A stretch of DNA of 64,000 nt from Thermoplasmata archaeon (GCA_021817245.1 JAKAVQ010000002.1:14721-78720); one strand, 5' to 3'; positions 979 through 28,534 are shown, counted from the stretch's first letter. The notes: generated by a model from the sequence alone, not told the origin. A program made the numbers and translations.

Positions 979-1169
979 ATCCCCGGGCCCCCTCAGGCCC
1001 GCCCCGGCGGCTCAGGCCCCGACCGGGCGGCGGCTGCCCGCGTGGTATCGCCGAACGGCGGGCTCACAACCCGACGGGCCGGCGGGGGCGAGCGGAACCG
1101 GACTCGGGGTCCCCCGGCCCCCGAACCGTATTGAGCGCGCGAACCTCGAGGCGTCGGGACGCGCCCGCG

Positions 1170-2216
1170 ATGTCGGCGATCATCCTGGGGGAGCGGGAGG
1201 TGCGCGACCTGCTCACGTACCCCGAGTGCATCGACCGGATGGACGAGGTCCTGCGGAGCCTCGCGGAGGGAGACGTGGTGCAGCCCGCCCGCACCGCCGT
1301 GGTGCTCCCGGGCGGCGAGCGACTCCTCGGGATGATGCCGGGGTACCTCGGCTCGCCTCCGACCCTCGGGGTCAAGGCGATCGCCGTCGTTCCGGGGAAC
1401 CGCGAGGTCGGTCGCCCGGCCCACCAGGGAGTCGTGGTCCTGCTCGACCCAACGACCGGCGAGACGACCGCGGTCCTCGAGGCATCCTCGGTGACCGAAA
1501 TCCGCACGGCGTCCGTGAGCGCGGTCGCCACCCGCGCCCTCGCGGTCCCGCAGGCCTCGTCCCTCGGGATCCTCGGGAGCGGCGTCCAGGCCCGTGCGCA
1601 TGCGCTCGCCCTCCCGCACGTGCGGCCGATCGCACGGCTCCGGCTCTGGGATCGGAATCCCGCACGCGCCCGTGCGCTGGCCGCGGACCTCCGCGCCGTC
1701 ATCTCGAGCGACGTGGAGGTCTCCGAGAGCGCGGAGTTCGTCGTTCGCTCCTCCGACATCCTCTGCACGACGACCGCGAGCCGAGCCCCCTATCTGAAGG
1801 GCGAGTGGCTGCGGGACGGCACCCACCTCAACGCGGTCGGCGCCGCCACGACGGGGCATCGGGAGCTCGAGCCGTCCGCCGTCCGGCGCGCGAGGGTCTT
1901 CGTCGATCACCGAGCCTCGGCGGACGCCGAGGCCGACGAGCTCCGCGTATTCCCTCCGTCGGGGCCGACCGCCCCCGACGCGGTCTCGGGAGAGCTCGGG
2001 GAGGTCCTGCTGGGTCGGGTCGCCGGACGTACGTCGCCGGGAGAGGTCACGCTGTTCAAGTCGGTCGGGCTCGCCGTCGAGGACCTCGCCGCCGCCCGAT
2101 TCCTCGTAGAGCGGGCAACGGCCCTCGGCCGGGGGATACGGGTCGACCTGGGCCCTGCCTCCCGTCCGACGCCCCCGCCGTCGAGCGAGGTCGGACCTAA
2201 GGTCCGGGGTCGTTAA
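1170..2216 (+). CDS. ornithine cyclodeaminase / mu-crystallin family protein (archaeal alanine dehydrogenase-like)
   Basis: Internal ATG at 1170 in frame of ORF 876..2216. MSAIILGEREVRDLL…GMMPGYLG…VKAIAVVPGN…ILGSGVQA Rossmann motif, typical of the OCD/mu-crystallin family. Upstream part of the ORF overlaps the MFS gene. Confidence 0.8.
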   Translation: MSAIILGEREVRDLLTYPECIDRMDEVLRSLAEGDVVQPARTAVVLPGGERLLGMMPGYLGSPPTLGVKAIAVVPGNREVGRPAHQGVVVLLDPTTGETTAVLEASSVTEIRTASVSAVATRALAVPQASSLGILGSGVQARAHALALPHVRPIARLRLWDRNPARARALAADLRAVISSDVEVSESAEFVVRSSDILCTTTASRAPYLKGEWLRDGTHLNAVGAATTGHRELEPSAVRRARVFVDHRASADAEADELRVFPPSGPTAPDAVSGELGEVLLGRVAGRTSPGEVTLFKSVGLAVEDLAAARFLVERATALGRGIRVDLGPASRPTPPPSSEVGPKVRGR

Positions 2217-2362
2217 GGCGTCCGGCGCGACGGCCGCGGGCCCGCGTCCCGGATAGCACGTCCGGCCGACCGGTACCCGCACGCCGGTGCAGCGGAGCGA
2301 AGATCCCCTCATCCTCCCGAGTTCACCTCGCCTTCCGCACGGACGCTCACGGCCGGCCTCGT

Positions 2363-2938
2363 TCACGGGGGATGCCGTGTTCCCCCGGGGCGATCCGCCC
2401 GGATCGTGCGACCCCCCGAATGCCCCGGCTCGACCCGTCGCCGGTCCGGTCCGCGGTCACGTGACCTCTCCTTCCCGTCGGCGAGCTCGTCGGGACGGCC
2501 CCGGGACACCGTCCCCGAAGCGCTCGCCACCGATCGACGTCGCCCCGCCGGACCCCGGGTCGGACGGCGGGCGGAGGTGGGACCTCCGCGAAGGATCTCG
2601 CGGAGACGTTCGGCGAGGACCGACGCGTTCGAGTGGTCAGCGTCCCGGGCGCCGAAGACGAGGGTCACGGTCGTTCGACGGGCCTCCTCGGCGAGGGCCT
2701 CGAGCCGCTCCGGGTGCCGGGCGAGCTCGGCACGGTATCGTCGCCGGAACTCGGGATAGCGCGCCGGGAGATGGCCGAACCACCGACGGAGCTCGTCGCT
2801 CGGCGCGAGCTCCTTGAGCCATCCGGCCAGTTCGAGCGCGGTCGCCGAACGCCCTCGTGGCCAGAGCCGGTCGATGAGGTAGCGTCGGCCGTCGCCCTCG
2901 GAAACGGGGTCGTAGGCCCGTTTCGACCTCACCGTCAT
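2363..2938 (-). CDS. DUF488 (YeaO-like) family protein
   Basis: MTVRSKRAYDP…YLIDRLWPRG…ALELAGWLKELAPS…LRRWFGH matches the DUF488 N-terminal signature. Second in-frame ATG chosen. The long Arg/Pro-rich C-terminal tail is unusual for the family. Confidence 0.65.
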   Translation of the reverse strand: MTVRSKRAYDPVSEGDGRRYLIDRLWPRGRSATALELAGWLKELAPSDELRRWFGHLPARYPEFRRRYRAELARHPERLEALAEEARRTTVTLVFGARDADHSNASVLAERLREILRGGPTSARRPTRGPAGRRRSVASASGTVSRGRPDELADGKERSRDRGPDRRRVEPGHSGGRTIRADRPGGTRHPP

Positions 2939-13402: not shown

Positions 13403-14548
13403 ATGACCGTGGCCCCCGGGGCGTCGGACCCCCACGGCCTCGCCCTCACGAGATCGGAGAAGGCCACCGTCGTGCTCCTCTACGCGCTGATCCTCGCGGC
13501 GACGGTCGGGGCGTTCGCCGCGGCGTTCGCCTACCTGCCGCACCATTACCCCGGCGAGCTCACCGGCGGAGGGCTCATCTTCAGCGGCCTCGCGATCACC
13601 GCGTACGTCCTCGGGGTTCGCCACGGCTTCGACGCCGACCACATCGCCGCGATCGACAACACGACCCGCAAACTCCTCAATGACGGGAAGCGTCCGCTCA
13701 CGGTCGGGACGTGGTTCTCGCTGGGCCACTCCACGATCGTCAGCGGGATGATCGTCGCGCTCGTGGTCGCGCTCAACTTCATCAACCAGAACTACCACAC
13801 CTTCGCCTCGGTCGGGGCGGTCCTCGGGACCGCGGTCTCGGGCGTCTTTCTCCTGATCATCGGGCTCGTGAACGTCCTGATCGTCGTCGAGGTCTATCGC
13901 ATCTTCCGGGGCCTCCGCGACCGTCGGCTCGACCAGAAGGCCCTCGACGAGCAGATGGAGAAGCGCGGGTTCCTCTACCGCTACTTCGGCCGGCTTTTCC
14001 GGATCGTCAACGAACCGTACCAGATCTATCCGATCGGAGTCCTGTTCGGGCTCGGGTTCGACACCGCCACCGAGGTCCTCCTCATCGGGATCGCGGTCTA
14101 CTTCGGGGGCACCGGGGCGTTCCCCCTCTGGGCGGTGCTGATCCTCCCGCTCCTGTTCACGTGCGGGATGGTCCTCTCCGACACCTCGGACGGGATCGCG
14201 ATGCGCTACGCCTACGGCTGGGCGTTCGACCAGCCGATCCGCAAGGTCTACTACAACCTCACCCTCACCGTCCTCTCCGTCCTCGTGGCGTTTGCGATCG
14301 GCGGTGTCGAGCTCCTCCAGGTGCTCTCGGCCGAGCTCGGCTGGTCGGGACCGTTCTGGACGTGGCTCGGCGGCCTCAGCTTCGAAGCCCTTGGGGTCGG
14401 GATCGTCGTGCTGTTCGTGGGGGCCTGGCTCGTCGCCCTCGCCATCTATCGCGTCAAGCACTACGAGGAGATCGGCTTCGGACCTGTCGAAGCGGTGAGC
14501 CCCCCCGCCGAGGCGTCGGCGCCCCTCGCGCCGTCGGGCGAGCCGTGA
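13403..14548 (+). CDS. NiCoT family nickel/cobalt transporter (HoxN/HupN/NixA)
   Basis: HGFDADHIAAID and GLGFDTATEV signature motifs, 8 TM segments. Preceded by AT-rich cataaccttaagtg. Confidence 0.9.
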   Translation: MTVAPGASDPHGLALTRSEKATVVLLYALILAATVGAFAAAFAYLPHHYPGELTGGGLIFSGLAITAYVLGVRHGFDADHIAAIDNTTRKLLNDGKRPLTVGTWFSLGHSTIVSGMIVALVVALNFINQNYHTFASVGAVLGTAVSGVFLLIIGLVNVLIVVEVYRIFRGLRDRRLDQKALDEQMEKRGFLYRYFGRLFRIVNEPYQIYPIGVLFGLGFDTATEVLLIGIAVYFGGTGAFPLWAVLILPLLFTCGMVLSDTSDGIAMRYAYGWAFDQPIRKVYYNLTLTVLSVLVAFAIGGVELLQVLSAELGWSGPFWTWLGGLSFEALGVGIVVLFVGAWLVALAIYRVKHYEEIGFGPVEAVSPPAEASAPLAPSGEP

Positions 14549-17374: not shown

Positions 17375-18208
17375 GTGCCGCCCCGACCCGCCGCGCGACG
17401 CCCATCGGCCGGGCCGCGGCTCGGCGACCCGCGGGCGCGCGTCCATATCGCGCCGGTCGGGTTCGAGATCGAGCGGATCACCGAGCCGATCGAGGCCGAG
17501 CGCGCCGACCGTGTCTACCTCATCACCCGGGCCGAACACGACCAGGCGGCGCCGTTCGTGGAGGAGGTCGTCCGTCGCCTCGGGTCGAGCTCGTGGCCGG
17601 TCGAGGTTCGCGTCGTCCGCACGGACCTCTGGAACGTCTTCGGCGCCCTCGCGGTGCTCCGGACGATCTTCGAGAACGAGCGGCGGACCGACCGGAACGC
17701 GTCCGACGTCCTCCCAATCCGGGTGAACGTCTCGACCGGCACCAAGATCACCGCGATCGCGGGGACCCTCGCCTGCATGCTCTGGAAGGGCGAACCGTAC
17801 TACGTCCAGGTCTCCCGGGCCTGGTACTCGGGCCGACTGCCCCGGGTCGCCGCGGTCCACGACGTCGTGGACCGGATCGATCCGGTCGGCGTGTACGCGC
17901 TGCGGGCCCCCGCGCCCGAGCTGGTCTCGGTCCTCGAGGCGCTCCAGCGGCGGGGCGGCTCGCTGCGCAAGCACGAGCTCCTCCGGGAGCTCGGGCTCGA
18001 CCGCCGCGGCCCCGGCGGAGCCCCCGCGGCCTCGCCGCAGGCGCAGCACGGACGCCTGCGACGCCGCCTCGAACCGCTCGAGATCCGGTGGGGGTTCGTG
18101 CGGTCGGAGGCCCCCGGGCCCCGGGCCCGCGTCACGCTCACCGAGCAGGGACGCGTCGCGGTCGCCATCTTTGGGCGGGTCGGCCCGCCCCTGCCCGATA
18201 TTCACTGA
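17375..18208 (+). CDS. HFX_2341-family putative transcriptional regulator (DUF6293 N-domain + C-terminal wHTH)
   Basis: RVHIAPVGFEIERI… matches the family signature (HIVPVGFDYDRI). C-terminal winged helix (…SLRKHELLRELGLD…RVTLTEQGRVAV). Confidence 0.7.
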   Translation: MPPRPAARRPSAGPRLGDPRARVHIAPVGFEIERITEPIEAERADRVYLITRAEHDQAAPFVEEVVRRLGSSSWPVEVRVVRTDLWNVFGALAVLRTIFENERRTDRNASDVLPIRVNVSTGTKITAIAGTLACMLWKGEPYYVQVSRAWYSGRLPRVAAVHDVVDRIDPVGVYALRAPAPELVSVLEALQRRGGSLRKHELLRELGLDRRGPGGAPAASPQAQHGRLRRRLEPLEIRWGFVRSEAPGPRARVTLTEQGRVAVAIFGRVGPPLPDIH

Positions 18209-19035: not shown

Positions 19036-21239
19036 CGGCGGGGCCTGCCGGCCCGGCCCGCTACGGGCCTCCGCCGGTCCTCCTTACGACCCTATCGTCC
19101 GCGGCGCTCCTCGACGGCCGGGGCGACCTCGAGCTCGCCCGGGAGGCGCGCGGCGCGCCCGGTGAATGGGGCGGGGTGTACGGCCAGCTCGTGCGCCTGA
19201 CGGGGCCGTGGCGGCTCTCGCTCGTCGTGGACGGGTCCTCCCGGAGCCTCCCCGAGACGCTCGTCGAAGCGGGCGGCGGGTCGGACCGCTGGCAGACCCG
19301 CCACCGCTGGGGCCGCCTCGAGGTCGCGGAGACCGTGGTCGCCACGGAGGAACCTCCGGGGGCGGTCCGTCGTCTCCGGTGTTCCCTGACCGACGGTCCG
19401 GCCCTCACGCTCACCCTGCGCAGCCGGTTCGTGCCGTTCCTGTTGCCCGTCCTCGTCGAGGGGATCCGACCCGCCCGCTACCGGGCGGACGCGCGACCCG
19501 GCGAGCTGCGGGTCCGCCAGCGCGGCTACGGCCTTTCGTTCCGGTCGAGCGTGGCCCCCTCGCGCCTCTACGCGAACGGGGTCGCCTGGGTCGGGAACTC
19601 CCGGGAGGGTCCGGTCGAGGAGTTCGCATCGGACCACGAAGTCGTTCTGACCCCCGAAGCACCGGTCGAGGTCACGTTCCTCATATCGGGAGGGCTCGAG
19701 CGCTCGATCCCCGACACGGCGTCGTCCGAGCTCGCGACCGGCGACCCGATCGAGGTCGCCGACCGGGCCGAGCGCGCTCGGGTCGCGTGGGAGGCCCGCA
19801 CGCCGATCGTCCGGTTCCCCGGGGCGCCCGAGCTCGAACGCGCGTACGCGCTCGCCCGTTCGGCGCTCCGTCGCCTGTACTCGGCGCCCGGCGACGGCCT
19901 CGTCGGCCTGGTCGCTGGGTACCCTTGGTATGCGGCGATCTGGTGCCGGGACCTTGCCTGGATGCTGCCGGCGGTCCTCTGGCTCGGCGACTTCGACTGG
20001 GCCGAGCGATCGATCGACTCGGTCTTCCGATTCCAGGCGCGGTCGGAGCTGCCGCTCCTGGGCGGGGAGCCCGGGGAGCTTCCGATGCAGATCGCCCCGG
20101 GGCCGCTCTTCCTCTACGGCACCTCCGACACGACCCTCTACTACCCCGAGCTCGTTCTCCGCCTCGCCCGCCACGCGGGCCGCGCCTCCGTGCCGGGGCA
20201 GTGGCGAGACGCGCTCGCCCGGATCGCGGGGTGGGGCCGCGCGCGGGCCGACGCCGAGACGGGCCTTCTGAGGAACGGCGGCGAGGCGGAGACGATGGAG
20301 ATCGCGGCCGGACCGGTGGCGCGGATCCGCTACGGCATCGACGCGCCGGACACGACGATCTGGGATTCGACCGATCGAAGGGACCACGCGATCGACGTTC
20401 AGGTCCTCTGGTGGGGAGCGCTCCGGGCGACGGCCGAGCTCCTCGAGGGCCGCCCCGGCCCGCCGGACCCGGCCGGCCTCCGGGCGCTCGCCGAGCAGGT
20501 CGCCGGCTCCGTCACGAGCCGCTACGCCTGGCCGCAGGAAGGGTACCTCTACGACTCGCTCCGGGCGGGCGCTCCGGTCGCCCAGCTGCGACCGAACGCC
20601 CTGCGGGCGGTCAGCGCGGGGCTCCTCGCGCCCGAGACGGCGCGGTCGGTCGTCCGACGGGCCGCGCGCGACGACCTGACGACCCCGTGGGGGGTGCGGA
20701 CGCTCTCGAGCGCGGACCCGTCGTTCGACCCGGGCACCTACCACGACGGGCAGGTCTGGCCGATCGCGACCGCGTGGGCCGCCGACGCGGCGCTCGCGGC
20801 GGGAGAACGTGAGCTCGGGCTCGCCTACCTCACGTCGATCGCGCGCCAGCTCGCGGCGCAGGCTCCGCACGCGAACGAGTGCTTCCGAGGCGACCGCGAG
20901 GAACCGTTCGACTCGTGCTTCGTGCTCGGGTTCAGCGTCGCCCCGTTCCTCACGATCCTCTTCGAACGTCTCTGGGGGCTGGAGGTCGACGGGAGGGGGC
21001 CCCGCCTCGCGGTTCGGCCCGCGTTCCCGGAATCTCTCCCCCGGGCCTCGATCGACGGGCTGCGGGTCGGGACGGGCAGCGCCCGGCTTCGCTACCGCTC
21101 GGGCCGGCTGTCGGTCGATTGGTCGGGCGGTGCGCCGCTCCGCCTCGAGACCGCGGGAGGGACCACGTGGGTCGGCCCGGGGGAGAGCGCCGAGGTGGAC
21201 GTTGCCGCGGGCGGGAGCGCTGCCCCGCCCCACCCCTAG
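19032..21239 (+). CDS. archaeal-type glycogen debranching enzyme (GDE_C / amylo-alpha-1,6-glucosidase family)
   Basis: YPWYAAIWCRDLAWMLPAVLWLGD, …HDGQVWPIATAW… (alpha/alpha)6-barrel GDE_C signatures. N-terminal beta-sandwich domain. GGAGGG RBS then GTG. Confidence 0.7.
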   Translation: MTAGPAGPARYGPPPVLLTTLSSAALLDGRGDLELAREARGAPGEWGGVYGQLVRLTGPWRLSLVVDGSSRSLPETLVEAGGGSDRWQTRHRWGRLEVAETVVATEEPPGAVRRLRCSLTDGPALTLTLRSRFVPFLLPVLVEGIRPARYRADARPGELRVRQRGYGLSFRSSVAPSRLYANGVAWVGNSREGPVEEFASDHEVVLTPEAPVEVTFLISGGLERSIPDTASSELATGDPIEVADRAERARVAWEARTPIVRFPGAPELERAYALARSALRRLYSAPGDGLVGLVAGYPWYAAIWCRDLAWMLPAVLWLGDFDWAERSIDSVFRFQARSELPLLGGEPGELPMQIAPGPLFLYGTSDTTLYYPELVLRLARHAGRASVPGQWRDALARIAGWGRARADAETGLLRNGGEAETMEIAAGPVARIRYGIDAPDTTIWDSTDRRDHAIDVQVLWWGALRATAELLEGRPGPPDPAGLRALAEQVAGSVTSRYAWPQEGYLYDSLRAGAPVAQLRPNALRAVSAGLLAPETARSVVRRAARDDLTTPWGVRTLSSADPSFDPGTYHDGQVWPIATAWAADAALAAGERELGLAYLTSIARQLAAQAPHANECFRGDREEPFDSCFVLGFSVAPFLTILFERLWGLEVDGRGPRLAVRPAFPESLPRASIDGLRVGTGSARLRYRSGRLSVDWSGGAPLRLETAGGTTWVGPGESAEVDVAAGGSAAPPHP

Positions 21240-21270
21240 CTTTCATTACCCGCGGGCTTTGAGGAGGACG

Positions 21271-22203
21271 ATGCCCGCCGCGATCGAGGTCCGGGGACTT
21301 GTGAAGCGGTACGGCCCGCTCGCCGCGGTCGACGGGATCGACTTCGACGTGCCGACGGGAACGGTCTTCGCGTTCCTCGGCCCGAACGGCGCCGGAAAGA
21401 CGACGACCACCGAGATCCTCGAGGGCCTGCGGCGCCGGACCGAGGGGTCGGTCCGGGTCCTGGAGCTCGACCCGTGGTCGGACGGCGCCGCGCTCCACCG
21501 TCGGATCGGCGTGATCCCCCAGGACTTCCGGTTCTTCGAGAAGATCACCCCCAAGGAGGCGATCGAGTACTACCGGGCGCTCTTCGGCACGGACGTCGAC
21601 CCGGGGAAGCTCCTCGCCCAGGTCGAGCTCCTCGACAAGATCGCGGCCCGGTTCGACACCCTCTCCGGGGGCCAGAAGCAGAAGCTCGGGCTCGCCCTCG
21701 CGCTCACGAACGACCCCGAGATCTGCTTCCTCGACGAGCCGACGACCGGCCTCGACCCGCACGCCCGCCGCGCGATCTGGGCGGTGATCCGCACCTTGAA
21801 GCGCGAGGGCCGCACGGTGTTCCTGACCACGCACTACCTCGAGGAGGCGGAGATCCTCGCCGACCGCGTCGCGATCATCCACCACGGCCGCATCATCGCC
21901 GCCGGAACCCCGAACGAGATCATCCGCGCCCACGGCCGCCCCGCGCGCCTGCGCGTCGAGGGGTCGCCGGAGCTCGCCGCGTACCTCCGCACGACCCTCG
22001 GCCTCTCCGCGTTCGCGGAGGGGGGTCGGATCGACGTCGAGCTCGGGAGCGCCCGGGACGCGCTCCGGGTCCTCAACGCCGTCGAGTCGAGCGGACTTCC
22101 GTGGAGCGCGTTCGAGACGACGCAGGACACGCTCGAGGACGTCTTCGTCCGGCTCGTCGGGCAGATGGACGACGGAGCGCTCAAGTCGGAGGCCCCGACG
22201 TGA
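21271..22203 (+). CDS. ABC transporter ATP-binding protein (ABC-2/DrrA-like)
   Basis: GAGGAGG RBS + ATG. Walker A GPNGAGKTT, signature LSGGQKQKL, Walker B ICFLDEPTTGLD. Confidence 0.9.
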   Translation: MPAAIEVRGLVKRYGPLAAVDGIDFDVPTGTVFAFLGPNGAGKTTTTEILEGLRRRTEGSVRVLELDPWSDGAALHRRIGVIPQDFRFFEKITPKEAIEYYRALFGTDVDPGKLLAQVELLDKIAARFDTLSGGQKQKLGLALALTNDPEICFLDEPTTGLDPHARRAIWAVIRTLKREGRTVFLTTHYLEEAEILADRVAIIHHGRIIAAGTPNEIIRAHGRPARLRVEGSPELAAYLRTTLGLSAFAEGGRIDVELGSARDALRVLNAVESSGLPWSAFETTQDTLEDVFVRLVGQMDDGALKSEAPT

Positions 22204-23330
22204 ACGGTCGTCGTATCGGCGCCGACTTCCGGGTCGTCGCCCGGTCGTACTTCCGCAATCCGATCGCGTTGTTCTTCTCGCTGATCTTCCCGATCATCCT
22301 GATCGGGCTCTTCGGCCTCATCTTCTCCAACGTCGGGGGCGGGACCGTCACGCTCCCGGTCGTCAACGCCGACCCCGGGTGCCCGTTCGACCCCCTGACG
22401 CACAACACGACCACGTACTGCCAGGAATTCCTCGCCGCCCTCAACGGCACGCACGTCGTGAAGGTCGACGTCGTCTCGATGCCGGTCGCGACGTTCGCGT
22501 CGTGGCTCGGCCAGAAGGATTACACGGTCGGCCTCGTGATCCCGCCCGGGTTCGGCGAGAACTACTCGCAGCGTCTGCCCGCGAACGTCACGGTCTACTC
22601 GAACCCCCAGGACGCCGCGACGTCCGGCACCGTCTTCGGCGCCGTCCAGGGTGTCGTCAACGGCTTCAACCTGCGCGCGGCCGGGGGGACCCCCTTCCTC
22701 GGGTTCCGGACCTCGAACATCGGCAGCCCGGTCTACACCTACATCGACTACCTGATCCCGGGGCTGATCGGCTTCTCGATCCTGACGAGCCCGATGTTCT
22801 CGATGGTCGACGTCACGTCGTCGTACCGCAAGGAGGGGATCTTCCGCCAGCTGTCGCTCACCCCGCTGACCCGCTCGGAGTGGCTGATCTCGCGGGTCCT
22901 GTGGTACGTCGCGCTCACGTTCGTCACCGCCGCGATCATGCTCGGCGCGGGCATCGGGCTCTTCGGGGCGCACGTGACGTTCACCTTCGGCCTCGTCCCC
23001 TTCCTCGTCGTCGGGTCGTTCTTCTTCGTGTCGCTCGGGATGCTCGCGGGCTCGATCGCGAAGACGCCCGAGAGCGCCGCGCTGATCGGGAACATCATCA
23101 CGTTCCCGATGATGTTCCTCTCGGGGACGTTCTTCCAGGTCTCGAGCATGCCGCCGGGGCTCCAGGCGTTCGCCCACCTCCTCCCGCTCTACTACGTGAT
23201 CGACGGCATGAACCAGGTGCTTTTGTTCTCGAACACGACGCAGGCGCTCTACGACCTAGCGATCGTCCTCGTCGGTTCGCTGATCGTCTTCGCGCTCGCC
23301 GTCCGCTTCTTCCGGTGGCGGGACGAATGA
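22200..23330 (+). CDS. ABC-2 family transporter permease
   Basis: GTGA overlap with ATPase stop. 6 predicted TM helices, large first extracytoplasmic loop, ABC-2 membrane domain. Confidence 0.85.
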   Translation: MNGRRIGADFRVVARSYFRNPIALFFSLIFPIILIGLFGLIFSNVGGGTVTLPVVNADPGCPFDPLTHNTTTYCQEFLAALNGTHVVKVDVVSMPVATFASWLGQKDYTVGLVIPPGFGENYSQRLPANVTVYSNPQDAATSGTVFGAVQGVVNGFNLRAAGGTPFLGFRTSNIGSPVYTYIDYLIPGLIGFSILTSPMFSMVDVTSSYRKEGIFRQLSLTPLTRSEWLISRVLWYVALTFVTAAIMLGAGIGLFGAHVTFTFGLVPFLVVGSFFFVSLGMLAGSIAKTPESAALIGNIITFPMMFLSGTFFQVSSMPPGLQAFAHLLPLYYVIDGMNQVLLFSNTTQALYDLAIVLVGSLIVFALAVRFFRWRDE

Positions 23331-23923
23331 CCGCGTCGGCCCCCGACGCTTCGGGCGACAGCCTCCGGTTCCGTCGCCTGATGGGCCGGTGGGCGACCGG
23401 GGTCTCGGTCGTGACCGCCCGCGACGGCCCGACGGACGCGGGCCTCACGGTGAACGCCCTGCTCTCCGTCTCGACCCACCCGCCCGCGCTGCTCGTGAGC
23501 CTCATGCACGATGTCGACACCCTGCCCGTCCTCCGGCGCGCGGGGGCGTTCGCCGCGAGCTTCCTCGCGCACGACCAGCGCGCGCTCAGCGAGCGGTTCG
23601 CCGCCACCGTCCCGCCCGCCGAGAAGTTCCGCGGGCTCGCGCTCCACCGGGGCGCGACGGGCGCCCCCCTGCTCGACGGGACGCTCGGCGCTCTCGAGTG
23701 CCGCGTCCGGTCGGTCTCGCCCGCCTTCGACCACGACCTGGTCCTCGGGGAGGTCGTCCGTCAGGAGGTCGGCCGCGACGTCCTCCCGCTCCTCTTCTAC
23801 CGCTCGGGATACGCGGAGGCGGACGGGCCGGACCGGCTCCGGCTCCCTCGGGCGGCTCCCGGACGGAAAGGTAACCTCGGGCGCGGGGGATTTAAGCCTC
23901 CCCGAACTCGTTCGAGCCGATGA
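23327..23923 (+). CDS. flavin reductase (NAD(P)H:FMN oxidoreductase, split-barrel, HpaC-like)
   Basis: ATGA overlap with permease. …FRRLMGRWATGVSVVTA…GLTVNALLSVS…P…LL…; flavin_reduct domain. C-terminal 30 aa basic tail runs over a TTTAAG TATA-like element. Confidence 0.8.
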   Translation: MTASAPDASGDSLRFRRLMGRWATGVSVVTARDGPTDAGLTVNALLSVSTHPPALLVSLMHDVDTLPVLRRAGAFAASFLAHDQRALSERFAATVPPAEKFRGLALHRGATGAPLLDGTLGALECRVRSVSPAFDHDLVLGEVVRQEVGRDVLPLLFYRSGYAEADGPDRLRLPRAAPGRKGNLGRGGFKPPRTRSSR

Positions 23924-24885
23924 CCGCGGCCGAACGTTCGACGCGCGTTGCGATCCTCGGGAGCGGAGCCGCCGGCCTCACCGCATCCCTCTACGCGGCC
24001 CGGGCCGAGCTCGCCCCGCTCGTGATCTCGGGCGTCCCGGCCGGCGGCCAGCTGATCATCACGACCGAGGTCGAGAACTTTCCGGGGTTCCCCGAGGGGA
24101 TCCAGGGCCCGGAGCTGATCGACCGGATGCGGCGGCAGGCCGCCCGGTTCGGCACGGAGTTCGTCGACGACAACGTCACGGGGGTCGACTTCGGCCGCCG
24201 GCCGTTCCTCCTGCGCACGGGGAGCTCGGGAACCGTCCTCGCCGACGCGGTGATCGTCGCGACCGGCGCGAACGCCCGGTGGCTCGGCCTCCCGTCCGAA
24301 CAGCGCCTCCAGGGCCACGGCGTCTCGGCGTGCGCGACGTGCGACGGGTTCTTCTTCAAGGGCCGCGAGCTCGCGGTCGTCGGCGGCGGCGACACGGCGA
24401 TGGAGGAGGCGCTCTTCCTCACGAACTTCGCGACGCACGTGACGGTCGTCCACCGCCGGGACCACCTTCGCGCGAGCTCGATCATGCAGGAACGAGCGCG
24501 CGCCCACCCGAAGATCTCCCTCCTCCTCGACTCGGAGGTCGTCGAGGTCCTCGGTTCCGAGCGCGTCGAGGGCCTGCGCGTGCGCCATCGGCCGAGCGGC
24601 GACGTGCGCACGCTGCCGGTGGGGGGGCTCTTCGTCGCGATCGGCCACGTCCCGTCGACCGAGGTCCTGCGCGGCCACCTCGACCTCGACCCGGAAGGCT
24701 ACGTCAAGGTCCGCGACCACACGCGCACGAGCGTCGAGGGGGTCTTCGCCGCCGGCGACGTCCAGGACCGCCACTACCGTCAGGCGGTCACCGCGGCGGG
24801 GTCGGGCTGCATGGCGGCGATCGACGCGGAGCGGTGGCTCGCGGAGCACCCGCCCGCGCGGGCCGTCGCGCGCGCGGCCCACTGA
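23920..24885 (+). CDS. trxB: thioredoxin-disulfide reductase
   Basis: GSGAAG FAD site, redox CATC, GGGDTA NAD(P)H site. ATGA overlap with flavin reductase. Confidence 0.9.
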   Translation: MTAAERSTRVAILGSGAAGLTASLYAARAELAPLVISGVPAGGQLIITTEVENFPGFPEGIQGPELIDRMRRQAARFGTEFVDDNVTGVDFGRRPFLLRTGSSGTVLADAVIVATGANARWLGLPSEQRLQGHGVSACATCDGFFFKGRELAVVGGGDTAMEEALFLTNFATHVTVVHRRDHLRASSIMQERARAHPKISLLLDSEVVEVLGSERVEGLRVRHRPSGDVRTLPVGGLFVAIGHVPSTEVLRGHLDLDPEGYVKVRDHTRTSVEGVFAAGDVQDRHYRQAVTAAGSGCMAAIDAERWLAEHPPARAVARAAH

Positions 24886-24973
24886 CGCGACCCGCGGGCC
24901 GAGACCGACGCCAGGCCGCACGGAGGTTCGTCGCTCCGCGCGCTACGTACGACCCCGCTCCCGCTCCGGGGCA

Positions 24974-25017
24974 GGCTTTAAGTGCGTCCCCGACCGGTGC
25001 GGGCCGAGGGACGCCGC
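24974..25017 (+). promoter_or_regulatory. TATA-like promoter for the ferredoxin-GGR pair
   Basis: ggcTTTAAGtgcg at 24974-24982; GTG start 25018 lies ~36 nt downstream, giving a short or leaderless 5' UTR. Confidence 0.4.
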
Positions 25018-25209
25018 GTGCCGAGCAAGAAGAGCCTCCACATCGAGTCCTCCGGGCAGCTGTGCATCTACTGCGGCGCCTGCGTCGGGATCTGCCCCCT
25101 CAACTGCATCTACCTCGACGAGACCCGGATCACGTTCGACGAGAAGGTCTGCACGCGGTGCGAGATCTGCGTGAAGGCCTGCCCCGTCGGGGCGATCGAG
25201 ATCGGGTGA
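25018..25209 (+). CDS. 4Fe-4S dicluster ferredoxin (GGR partner)
   Basis: CIYCGACVGICP and CTRCEICVKACP motifs. 63 aa from GTG. Confidence 0.8.
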   Translation: MPSKKSLHIESSGQLCIYCGACVGICPLNCIYLDETRITFDEKVCTRCEICVKACPVGAIEIG

Positions 25210-25237
25210 CCTCGCGGGGGGAACGGAGCGATCCATC

Positions 25238-26425
25238 ATGTCCGACCGAACGACCGACGTGCTCGTGATCGGCGCCGGCCCCGCGGGGAGCATGACCGCG
25301 AAGTGGGCGGCGAAGCACGGGGCGAACGTTTTGATGATCGAGAAGCGCCAGGAGATCGGCAGCCCCGTGCGCTGCGGCGAGGGGATGAGCAAGGACTGGC
25401 TCGCGGAGGTCGGCGTCGCGCCCGGCCGCTGGGTCAACCTCGAGGTCGAGGGCGCCCGGATCTACTCGCCGAGCGAGAAGGTCTTCGAGATCAACGAAAA
25501 GCACGCGGGCAACGAGGTCGGCTACGTCGTCGAGCGCGACGCGTTCGACAAGCAGCTCGCGATCGACGCGGCCAACGCGGGCGTCGAGGTGAAGCTCAAG
25601 ACCGCGGCGGTCGGCGTCCTCAAGGAGAACGGCCGGGTCGTCGGCGCGAAGGTGAAGGAGTTCGGGGAGACCTACGAGATCCGCGCGCCGATCACGGTCG
25701 CGGCGGACGGGTTCGAGAGCCAGGTCGGCCGATGGGCCGGGATCCCGACGAACCTCGCGGTGCGCGACATGGACACGTGCCTGCAGTACCGGATGACGAA
25801 CGTCGACTGCGACGTCCGCTACTGCGACTTCTACCTCGGCAAGGTCGCGCCCGGCGGCTACGTCTGGATCTTCCCGAAGGCGGAGGGCCTCGCGAACGTC
25901 GGGATCGGGGTCCAGGTGAGCCAGGTGAAGTCCCCCGCCGACGCGCGGACGTACCTCGACCGCTGGATCGAGGCGCACCCGGGCTACGCGAAGGGCAAGA
26001 AGATCGACATGGTCGGGGGCGGGGTCTCGATCTCGCCGCCGCTCAAGCAGACGGTCGCGGACGGGATCATGCTCGTCGGCGACGCCGCGCGGATGATCGA
26101 CCCGCTCACCGGCGGGGGGATCGCGAACGGCTGCATCGCGGGGAAGATCTGCGGCGAGGTCGCGGCCGAGGCGGTGCGCTCGCACGACGTCTCGAGGGAG
26201 TTCCTCCAGCGGTACGAGAAGGGATGGCGCGCCCGCCTCGAGGAGAAGCTCTACCGCAACTGGCTCGCCAAGGAGAAGCTCACGACCCTGAGCGACGAGA
26301 CGTTCGACAAGGTCGTGGACGCGATCTCGGGCGTGCGCCTCGGCAAGCTCAACGTCCACAACATCCTGAAAGCGGTCCACGAGAAGTACCCCGAGGTCAC
26401 GCGGGAGTTCGAGGCGCTCCTCTAG
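25238..26425 (+). CDS. digeranylgeranylglycerophospholipid reductase (geranylgeranyl reductase, FAD-dependent)
   Basis: VLVIGAGPAGS FAD site, …RCGEG…, …GDAARMIDPLTGGGI… Archaeal lipid saturation enzyme. Confidence 0.9.
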   Translation: MSDRTTDVLVIGAGPAGSMTAKWAAKHGANVLMIEKRQEIGSPVRCGEGMSKDWLAEVGVAPGRWVNLEVEGARIYSPSEKVFEINEKHAGNEVGYVVERDAFDKQLAIDAANAGVEVKLKTAAVGVLKENGRVVGAKVKEFGETYEIRAPITVAADGFESQVGRWAGIPTNLAVRDMDTCLQYRMTNVDCDVRYCDFYLGKVAPGGYVWIFPKAEGLANVGIGVQVSQVKSPADARTYLDRWIEAHPGYAKGKKIDMVGGGVSISPPLKQTVADGIMLVGDAARMIDPLTGGGIANGCIAGKICGEVAAEAVRSHDVSREFLQRYEKGWRARLEEKLYRNWLAKEKLTTLSDETFDKVVDAISGVRLGKLNVHNILKAVHEKYPEVTREFEALL

Positions 26426-27460: not shown

Positions 27461-28534
27461 ATGGCGCGTCCGAGGTTCGGCACCTTCTCGATCGTCGCGT
27501 ACGAACGCGAGACCGCGACCTGGGGCGTCGCGGTGCAATCGAAGTTCCTCTCCGTCGGGGCGGTCGTGCCGTGGGCCGAAGCCGGCGCCGGGGCGATCGC
27601 GACGCAGGCGCTCGCGAACGTCGCCTACGGGCGGGACGGGCTCGCGCTCCTGCGCAAGGGCGTCCGCGCCCCGGAGGTCGTCCGGCGGCTGACCGACGCG
27701 GACCCGGGCCGGGACGAGCGGCAGCTCGGCGTCGTCGACGTGCGGGGGGAAGCGGCGTCGTTCACGGGGGCGAAGTGCATGGAGTGGGCGGGCCACGAGG
27801 TCGGGGACGGCTTCGCCTGCCAGGGGAACATCCTCTTCGGTCCCGCGGTCGTCCGCGCGATGGCCCGATCGTTCGAGTCGACCGGCGGGGACATCCTCGA
27901 CCGCCTCCTCGCGGCGCTCGCCGCCGGCCAGCGGGAGGGCGGCGACCGCCGGGGGATGCAGTCGGCGGCCCTCCTCGCCGTCCGCGCGGGCGGGGCGTAC
28001 GGGGGCGGCGGGGACCGGTGGGTTGACGTCCGGGTCGACGACCACCCGTCGCCGATCGAGGAGCTCAAGCGGATCTTCGCGCTCTACGACCTGACGATGC
28101 TCGACCGCGAGGACCCGTCCGCGCTCCTCGCGATCGACGCCGAGGTCGCCCGCGAGCTGCAGCACGACCTCTCCGTCCTCGGCTACTACACCGGCCGCTG
28201 GACCGGGGCGTGGGACGACGCGAGCCGGGCCGCGTTCGCCCGGTTCATCGGCGAGCACAACTTCGAGAACAAGCAACGCGCCGACGACAAGGTCTGGCGC
28301 TCGATCGTCGGCTACTTGCGCGAACGGGCGTCGGCCGAGGTGGCGCGCCGCTCGCGCGCCGCTCCGATCGTGGCCCACGCGCTCGACCGCGGGCCGGGAG
28401 CGGACCCCCACGCGGTGGCGGGGGCGTCCCCGGCGACGGCCCCGCGGAGCGTCCCGCCGGTAGCCCCGGTCGGGGCGGCGGGAGGAGGCGGACGATCCCC
28501 GACGCCGAAGAAGCGCGCGCGCCGCTCGAAGTGA
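27461..28534 (+). CDS. DUF1028 (Ntn-hydrolase-like) protein with C-terminal PG_binding_1-like domain
   Basis: GGAGGG RBS + ATG. FGTFSIVAYERETATWGVAVQSKFLSVGAVVPWAEAGAGAIATQA is the DUF1028 N-terminus. C-terminus …LQHDLSVLGYYTGRWTGAWDDASRAAFARFIGE resembles a peptidoglycan-binding-like three-helix domain. Confidence 0.8.
   Translation: MARPRFGTFSIVAYERETATWGVAVQSKFLSVGAVVPWAEAGAGAIATQALANVAYGRDGLALLRKGVRAPEVVRRLTDADPGRDERQLGVVDVRGEAASFTGAKCMEWAGHEVGDGFACQGNILFGPAVVRAMARSFESTGGDILDRLLAALAAGQREGGDRRGMQSAALLAVRAGGAYGGGGDRWVDVRVDDHPSPIEELKRIFALYDLTMLDREDPSALLAIDAEVARELQHDLSVLGYYTGRWTGAWDDASRAAFARFIGEHNFENKQRADDKVWRSIVGYLRERASAEVARRSRAAPIVAHALDRGPGADPHAVAGASPATAPRSVPPVAPVGAAGGGGRSPTPKKRARRSK

Follow-up and report, generated by a model that had tools for sequence, protein, structure and literature searches.

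Three successive 4-nt overlaps between four genes raise the question of whether an archaeal exporter and two flavoenzymes are made together from a single message. The overlaps lie in positions 21,271–24,885 of a 64,000-nt stretch of DNA from a Thermoplasmata archaeon (GCA_021817245.1 JAKAVQ010000002.1:14721-78720; the whole stretch is called the window below), where the genes for an ABC transporter ATPase, an ABC-2 permease, an HpaC-like flavin reductase and the thioredoxin reductase TrxB follow one another on one strand (Table 1). An earlier note made from this sequence had read the overlaps (GTGA at 22200, ATGA at 23327 and ATGA at 23920) as stoichiometric co-translation of a four-gene operon, and had suspected an internal trxB promoter at a TTTAAG box (23891–23896). 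The coordinates of the four open reading frames (ORFs), the overlaps and the box were all exact, and the domain calls were upheld by Pfam and NCBIfam scores. Our comparison of the locus across relatives indicates that the four genes, which lie in a Thermoplasmata neighbourhood that is conserved, are probably transcribed as two adjacent units and not as one four-gene co-translated operon.

The window has a GC content of ~73% throughout its 64 kb, and its host belongs to the Lutacidiplasmatales/TMEG soil group, described as acidophilic, aerobic or facultatively anaerobic, and GC-rich in a paper that makes no mention of thioredoxin or flavin (PMC9287336). With the permease as query and one genome taken per species, 239 relatives were retrieved, and the best 80 of the 239 (57–95% identity) were compared; nearly all were metagenome-assembled genomes (MAGs) of Thermoplasmata archaea from soil and peat, Candidatus Lutacidiplasma silvani among them. 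The closest relative, L001, shares 95% amino acid (aa) identity in the permease and served as the reference for the alignment described below. ORF ends in the relatives were set at the first in-frame stop read from the ORF start and not at alignment ends; tblastn alignments ran across stop codons in this high-GC DNA, so that ORF ends taken from them were wrong. The order ATPase-permease-reductase-trxB, whose conservation had been chosen beforehand as the test of the four-gene proposal, was kept in related genomes. The full order kept in relatives is CARF, glucosidase, ATPase, permease, reductase, trxB, ferredoxin, geranylgeranyl reductase (GGR), hypothetical protein and DUF1028. Because this syntenic block of ~12 kb holds clearly unrelated genes (GDE, GGR, DUF1028), order alone says little about function, and the junctions between the genes are more informative.

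The ATPase/permease junction was an overlap in 79 of 80 loci, always of 4 nt; no short gap was found, and one locus carried an insertion of 153 nt. At the permease/reductase junction, scored in 78 loci, the genes overlapped in 65 (by 4 nt in 45 of these) and were separated by at most 54 nt in the other 13, with no large insertion. The reductase/trxB junction, in contrast, showed a single real overlap among 71 loci, the 4-nt overlap of the window itself, compared with a spacer of 22–136 nt in 59 loci and an insertion of 1.2–7 kb in 10; a further overlap in L072 was only apparent, the trxB start having been mis-picked, and was not counted. No overlap was seen between trxB and the ferredoxin gene either (67 loci: short gap in 62, large insertion in 5), and the GDE/ATPase junction was variable, some loci having GDE at another place or not at all. 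Thus no other gene ever came between the first three, and the junctions on both sides of trxB were broken repeatedly. Stoichiometric co-translation as deduced from the three overlaps is therefore not supported for trxB in this lineage: the first two junctions are conserved (79/80 overlapping; 78/78 uninterrupted), but the third overlap was present in 1/71. Judged by gene arrangement, these counts support translational coupling of ATPase, permease and reductase in one operon that is kept throughout the order.

What was inserted between reductase and trxB codes for surface proteins of the PKD-domain or Kelch beta-propeller type together with a small helix-turn-helix protein. In the TrxB tree these inserts are found on at least three separate branches. 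The spacer is an insertion hot spot (L010, 3169–7060; L038, 9750–12692; L177, 5679–9381; also L019, L049, L050, L053, L055, L067, L068 and L069), and the trxB TATA box was intact in each case.

The third overlap, taken by the earlier note as a further sign of coupling, coincides with a missing base. Pairwise alignment of the window with L001 reads GGAA-AGGTAA against GGAAGAGGTAA, and this one base fewer places the ancestral stop codon, TAA, out of frame in the window; in L001 and other relatives the reductase stops at the equivalent position or nearby. The window reductase has 198 aa, compared with 174–189 aa in relatives. The DNA encoding its extra tail is the conserved trxB promoter region, and the reductase frame ends at the TGA of the trxB ATGA. 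The deletion is probably real, because the identical 198-aa ORF, recorded in three sources, is carried by a separate Logan assembly of run SRR13205814, with the proviso that the two assemblies may share reads. Since the 4-nt overlap occurs only in the window among the 71 loci and stems from this deletion, the evidence supports its being an accident of this genome.

Upstream signals were compared by anchoring all loci on their start codons and deriving position-specific base profiles. The profile of 80 loci upstream of the ATPase gene contained a conserved TT.aTAAC box at −29 to −22. Upstream of trxB the profile box was cTTTAAC at −30 to −24, and a [C/T]TTTAA motif starting between −36 and −24 was found in 56 of 71 loci, kept even where 3–4 kb had been inserted upstream. 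The same motif in the same range preceded the permease in none of 81 loci and the reductase in 1 of 77, where only coding periodicity was seen. The window carries a counterpart of each box (Table 1), its TTTAAG lying 29 to 24 nt before the trxB ATG. The DNA is poor in AT-rich pentamers (52 clusters on both strands over 64 kb), and several of these stand 27–33 nt before other long ORFs with high GC at third codon positions (at 13403, 27461, 30641, 33033, 37663(-), 46100(-) and 3956(-)). The suspected internal trxB promoter was thus borne out by conservation of its sequence.

Shine-Dalgarno (SD)-like cores, counted 4–20 nt 5′ of the start codon, were distributed otherwise: 54 of 81 loci had one before the permease, 6 of 80 before the ATPase and 1 of 70 before trxB. 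Archaeal TATA boxes are centred ~26–27 nt before the transcription start; with this spacing the transcripts of the ATPase gene and of trxB should be leaderless, a reading that the scarcity of SD-like cores before both genes fits. With Rfam, neither a riboswitch nor any other RNA was detected in 20800–25400; the one match, attributable to chance, was below threshold. Downstream of trxB, the genes for a 63-aa ferredoxin with two [4Fe-4S] clusters and for GGR form a unit of their own. The conserved TTTAA box of the ferredoxin gene lies at −41 to −34, outside the range counted above, which predicts that its mRNA, in contrast to those of ATPase and trxB, has a short leader.

The history of the reductase-trxB adjacency was approached by an exhaustive profile-free search, which placed the reductase in a small Thermoplasmatota subfamily atop a generic family of 11,907 matches. 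L085, L088 and L175 grouped outside the main clade in a midpoint-rooted TrxB tree. In L085/86, whose reductase (202 aa) is 53% identical to that of the window, ATPase, permease, reductase and trxB all overlap (by 4, 16 and 4 nt), with GGAGGGA and no TATA box before trxB and a TTTATAT box before the ATPase; L087 (50% to the window) shows ATPase-permease-reductase up to the contig end. No ABC genes were present in L088-90 (49% to the window) or in L175 (61% to the L088-type reductase, not to that of the window); both have a divergent FAD-oxidase gene and a reductase and trxB overlapping by 4 nt, followed by ferredoxin-GGR-DUF1028 in L088-90 and by the contig end in L175. The overlapping trxB is preceded by GAGGGGGG in L088-90 and by GGGAGG in L175. 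The reductase stands alone in Candidatus Sysuiplasma jiujiangense (L082; 42% to the window). A background set of 80 generic flavin-reductase loci from metagenomes (~31–47% identical, mostly bacterial-looking) contained none with an adjoining ABC-2 permease or trxB, a weak negative given that many of the contigs are short. As far as these arrangements tell, reductase and trxB have long been neighbours in this part of the phylum and form a true operon in the sister clade, and the main clade, the window included, appears to express trxB from its own promoter. A functional tie between reductase and trxB is plausible because of this operonic arrangement in the sister clade.

The divergent gene of the sister clade encodes FAD_binding_4 and FAD-oxidase_C domains (1132–2883 (-) in L085, 3170–4993 (-) in L088, 3118–4557 (-) in L175) and lies directly 5′ of the ABC pair in L085 and of the reductase in L088 and L175. 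With the same neighbour in all three, the ABC pair looks like a clean two-gene insertion or deletion.

What the two units encode was then judged from the proteins themselves. The ATPase and permease correspond by sequence to an ordinary ABC-2 (type V) exporter pair, with export as the predicted direction. The translated ATPase contains Walker A (GPNGAGKT), signature (LSGGQ), Walker B/D-loop (FLDEPTTGLD) and H-loop (TTHY) motifs and matches Pfam ABC_tran (1.6e-26) and DrrA1-3_C. The permease matches ABC2_membrane_3 (1.8e-40, 139.5 bits; cut-off 31.6) and ABC2_membrane (6.5e-29, 101.4 bits; cut-off 26.9), and its topology by eye comprises one N-terminal transmembrane (TM) segment, an extracytoplasmic loop of ~130 aa and five more TM segments. 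With exporters of the DrrAB, NodIJ and NatAB type the pair shares the two-gene layout with a 4-nt overlap, a DrrA-like ATPase with its DrrA1-3_C tail and a six-TM ABC2_membrane_3 permease. It differs from them in the long loop after the first TM segment, in having a flavin reductase as conserved third gene, and in scores under the curated cut-offs (238 bits against 312 for the NCBIfam drrA subfamily, 63 against 223 for drrB, NodI and NodJ far below). All NCBIfam models of named ABC-2 subfamilies with known substrate (DrrAB, NodIJ, NatAB, PedABC and others) scored well below cut-off, the only solved relative of the permease was a marginal match to 8tsh (E = 0.0037), and PADLOC gave no defence-specific signal for permease or reductase, its ATPase matches reflecting generic ABC ATPase similarity. 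A literature search combining flavin reductase, ABC-2 and operon retrieved no description of such a linkage from the library searched.

The reductase matches Flavin_Reduct (PF01613; 4.5e-38, 131 bits against a cut-off of 27) over aa 19–164, with a conserved C-terminus to about aa 181. Its solved relatives number 23, the best being Thermus thermophilus HpaC (2ecr, 84.5 bits). The fold family, the size and the FMN-binding stretch TVNALLSVS..PP are shared with the HpaC, HsaB, StyB and RutF reductases; all NCBIfam equivalogs, however, fell under their cut-offs (HsaB 97/230, HpaC_Thermus 96/200, FerA 90/260, StyB 83/200, RutF 73/255). The window reductase also differs from these enzymes in its place behind an ABC-2 permease and before trxB, in the lack of a nearby monooxygenase, and in belonging to a Thermoplasmatota-specific subfamily with a conserved C-terminal tail (..YAEA.GPDRLRLP..; in the relatives ..YRSGYAEA.GPDRLRLP..). 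Neither the window nor any of the 80+ related loci had an oxygenase-type gene beside the reductase; a partner encoded at a distant site is possible. Reductases of the HpaC kind deliver reduced flavin in free form and do not depend on a fixed partner.

TrxB scored 388.9 bits against the thioredoxin-disulfide reductase model TIGR01292 (cut-off 343.45). Its motifs CATC (aa 138–141), GGGDTA (aa 155–160) and HRRDHLR (aa 178–184) were invariant in the alignment, sister-clade proteins included. GGGxxA and HRRxxxR are the NADPH motifs of low-Mr thioredoxin reductases, and the NADH-dependent enzyme of Thermoplasma acidophilum is without HRRxxxR (PMC6262447). Thus, an unusual cofactor specificity found no support, and the question of NAD(P)H specificity raised by the earlier note (GGGDTA versus HRRD) is answered by sequence: by its motifs the enzyme is canonical and should be NADPH-dependent. 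It resembles E. coli TrxB and mycobacterial TrxB2 in all these features, and its best solved relatives are the mycobacterial enzymes 5uth and 2a87 (M. smegmatis and M. tuberculosis; ~351 bits); it differs from them in being archaeal, in its predicted leaderless mRNA and in that a CxxC motif search of the 64-kb window found no thioredoxin gene. The T. acidophilum enzyme (3cty) shares the phylum and the enzyme family yet gave only 161 bits, and with HRRxxxR kept in the window TrxB, Thermoplasma-type cofactor use is not expected. We also considered a TrxB without NADPH binding, fed with electrons by the flavin reductase, and rejected it, since the complete NADPH motif set means that TrxB does not need the reductase as electron donor.

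Together, these data suggest the following course of expression. Unit 1 would be a leaderless mRNA starting at ~21271, driven by the TTTCATTA box and encoding ATPase, permease and reductase, coupled by the conserved 4-nt stop/start overlaps, with a GGAGG before the permease. Unit 2 would be a leaderless trxB mRNA starting at ~23920 and driven by the conserved TTTAAG/C box. The 1-nt deletion would have removed the normal reductase stop, letting the ORF cross the trxB promoter to the first in-frame stop, the TGA of ATGA, so that the third overlap would arise by accident from reductase read-through. The adjacency of reductase and trxB itself would be inherited, the sister clade keeping the two as an overlapping pair led by an SD, whether or not ABC genes precede it. 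TrxB would be the ordinary NADPH-dependent thioredoxin reductase of the cell, and the reductase would make reduced flavin from NAD(P)H. Most plausibly, exporter and reductase would work as one module that counters stress from a redox-active compound or detoxifies it, the reductase giving reduced flavin and the pump removing the compound, and the tie to trxB would reflect a shared NAD(P)H-dependent stress role from the ancestral bicistron.

Several points weigh against this interpretation. The promoters and leaderless starts are read from conserved sequence, there is no obvious terminator between reductase and trxB, and transcripts of unit 1 may read through into trxB, with termination-reinitiation at ATGA in this genome. 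Only two clades carry the adjacency, so that the trxB promoter may be an acquisition of the main clade or may have disappeared from the sister clade. As for function, the link of exporter and reductase is drawn from operon conservation inside one lineage, the lone reductase of Candidatus Sysuiplasma and the 0/80 generic loci speak against it, and no substrate clue was found for the exporter.

The lone reductase and the generic loci also favour the alternative that survives best, namely that the locus reflects synteny only and that the reductase is a passenger in a compact genome. It would act elsewhere, for example as partner of a flavin-dependent monooxygenase encoded at an unlinked site, or in general ferric/flavin reduction. 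We consider this unlikely, though deserving of serious attention. The association is confined to one Thermoplasmatota group, the family needs no fixed partner, and the block is syntenic down to its unrelated genes. A passenger, however, would hardly be expected to sit behind a permease/reductase junction that was unbroken in 78 loci, mostly as a stop/start overlap, when flanking junctions were broken often (GDE/ATPase variable, reductase/trxB 10 times, trxB/ferredoxin 5 times); nor does this alternative sit well with the sister clade, where reductase and trxB still overlap even if the ABC pair was lost or is absent.

Quite improbable, in our judgement, is the original proposal of one polycistronic, translationally coupled operon of four genes, with exporter, reductase and TrxB made in fixed proportion and acting on a common redox-active substrate. 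Three overlaps are literally present in the window, the gene order is conserved, no terminator is recognisable before trxB, and L085/86 has just such an arrangement, with an SD and no TATA box before an overlapping trxB. A single operon of this kind implies no internal promoter, but the conserved TATA-like box, a prediction from sequence, stands before trxB in the window and in 56/71 loci without an SD. The third overlap is unique among the 71 loci and due to the 1-nt deletion, 10 relatives tolerate 1.2–7 kb of unrelated genes between reductase and trxB, and L088 and L175 keep the reductase-trxB pair without any ABC genes.

Very unlikely, too, is an error of sequencing or assembly as the source of the 1-nt deletion, in which case the true genome would have, like L001, TAA at 23872–23874 and then a spacer of 45 nt. 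That suspicion arises because a relative with 95% identity differs here by one base, the context is rich in G and A, and the source is a MAG; the site, however, is not a long homopolymer, and the Logan assembly, with the proviso made above, contains the same ORF.

A bolder proposal, which we regard as a long shot, is that ATPase, permease and reductase constitute an undescribed redox-coupled exporter, in which the reductase docks and reduces the substrate at handover or charges a released flavin or quinone shuttle for extracellular reduction, with Fe(III) or humics in acidic soils as candidate targets, and in which the ancestral trxB pairing marks an NAD(P)H-driven envelope redox system of the Lutacidiplasmatales. 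The least probable alternative makes the reductase the NAD(P)H-side electron input for ferredoxin and GGR in membrane-lipid saturation, as part of a reductase-trxB-ferredoxin-GGR redox supply cluster: that order is kept in the main clade and both sister lineages, and a dedicated ferredoxin beside GGR needs a reductant, the Methanosarcina GGR/ferredoxin pair being the precedent, but ferredoxin-GGR has its own conserved promoter box, insertions split trxB from ferredoxin in 5 loci and reductase from trxB in 10, the ABC genes have no tie to such a role, and electron transfer from free reduced flavin to a low-potential 4Fe-4S ferredoxin should be thermodynamically unfavourable.

With two adjacent units as the preferred reading, the cluster is mostly ordinary, consisting of well-known families in a lineage-specific arrangement, and our findings leave knowledge of these protein families unchanged. 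They indicate that operon calls from overlaps alone are unsafe in very GC-rich archaea, where chance can produce a 4-nt overlap: at high GC there are few stop codons, so that one indel lets an ORF run through the promoter of the next gene to the next in-frame stop. Conserved AT-rich boxes ~30 nt before start codons are a better guide in such genomes. The trxB gene offers a natural example of two predicted expression states in sister clades, SD-led, overlapping and operonic in one and leaderless with its own promoter in the other. The analysis also flags a strictly conserved, uncharacterised operon of ABC-2 exporter and flavin reductase in abundant uncultured archaea of acid soils.

Table 1 Positions of the genes and signals discussed, counted from the first nucleotide of the window
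Feature	Position	Strand	Evidence or remark
ABC transporter ATPase gene (DrrA-like, 310 aa)	ATG 21271 to TGA 22203	+	ORF, Pfam
ABC-2 (type V) permease gene, 376 aa	GTG 22200 to TGA 23330	+	GTGA overlap with ATPase stop
HpaC-like NAD(P)H:flavin reductase gene, 198 aa	ATG 23327 to TGA 23923	+	ATGA overlap with permease stop
trxB, low-Mr thioredoxin reductase, 321 aa	ATG 23920 to TGA 24885	+	ATGA overlap with reductase stop
Putative TATA-like box of ABC operon (TTTCATTA)	21241..21248	+	30 to 23 nt before ATPase ATG
GGAGG, predicted Shine-Dalgarno of permease	22188..22192	+	12 to 8 nt before GTG 22200
1-nt deletion site (between 23868 and 23869), then ancestral stop TAA (23872-23874)	23868..23874	+	alignment with L001
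Reductase read-through tail, 17 codons (GNLGRGGFKPPRTRSSR plus stop)	23870..23923	+	in no relative
Putative TATA-like box of trxB (ATTTAAGC; TTTAAG 23891-23896)	23890..23897	+	30 to 23 nt before trxB ATG
NicO-type nickel transporter gene	13403..14548	+	
CARF/winged-helix protein gene	17375..18208	+	Pfam HFX_2341_N and DUF6293_C; PADLOC CARF3 4e-45
Ferredoxin-GGR unit	24977..26425	+	
Ferredoxin gene, 63 aa	25018..25209	+	2x[4Fe-4S]
GGR gene	25238..26425	+	
DUF1028 protein gene	27461..28534	+	C-terminal PG_binding_2; CTTAAG box 31 nt 5′ of ATG 27461
ETF protein gene, 643 aa	28758..30689	-	two ETF domains and ETF_alpha FAD-binding domain

In the window the four genes are flanked on the 5′ side by the genes for the CARF/winged-helix protein and an amylo-alpha-1,6-glucosidase-like protein, and on the 3′ side by those for the ferredoxin, GGR, a hypothetical protein, the DUF1028 protein and a fused electron-transfer flavoprotein (ETF). 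In many relatives the gene for the CARF protein is found in synteny 5′ of the ABC operon, directly adjoining it in L038, L049, L050, L057, L070 and L079; the protein may sense a ligand and regulate the neighbourhood. The DUF1028 protein, syntenic across the order, ends in a putative peptidoglycan-binding domain although its archaeal host should be without peptidoglycan. The 643-aa ETF protein appears to be a fusion of the beta and alpha subunits. A NicO-type nickel transporter is encoded further upstream in the window, and in L176 genes for NicO, NikR_C and NicX-like proteins (1–1779) lie just 5′ of the ABC operon; both fit the nickel-dependent traits reported for Lutacidiplasmatales (PMC9287336).

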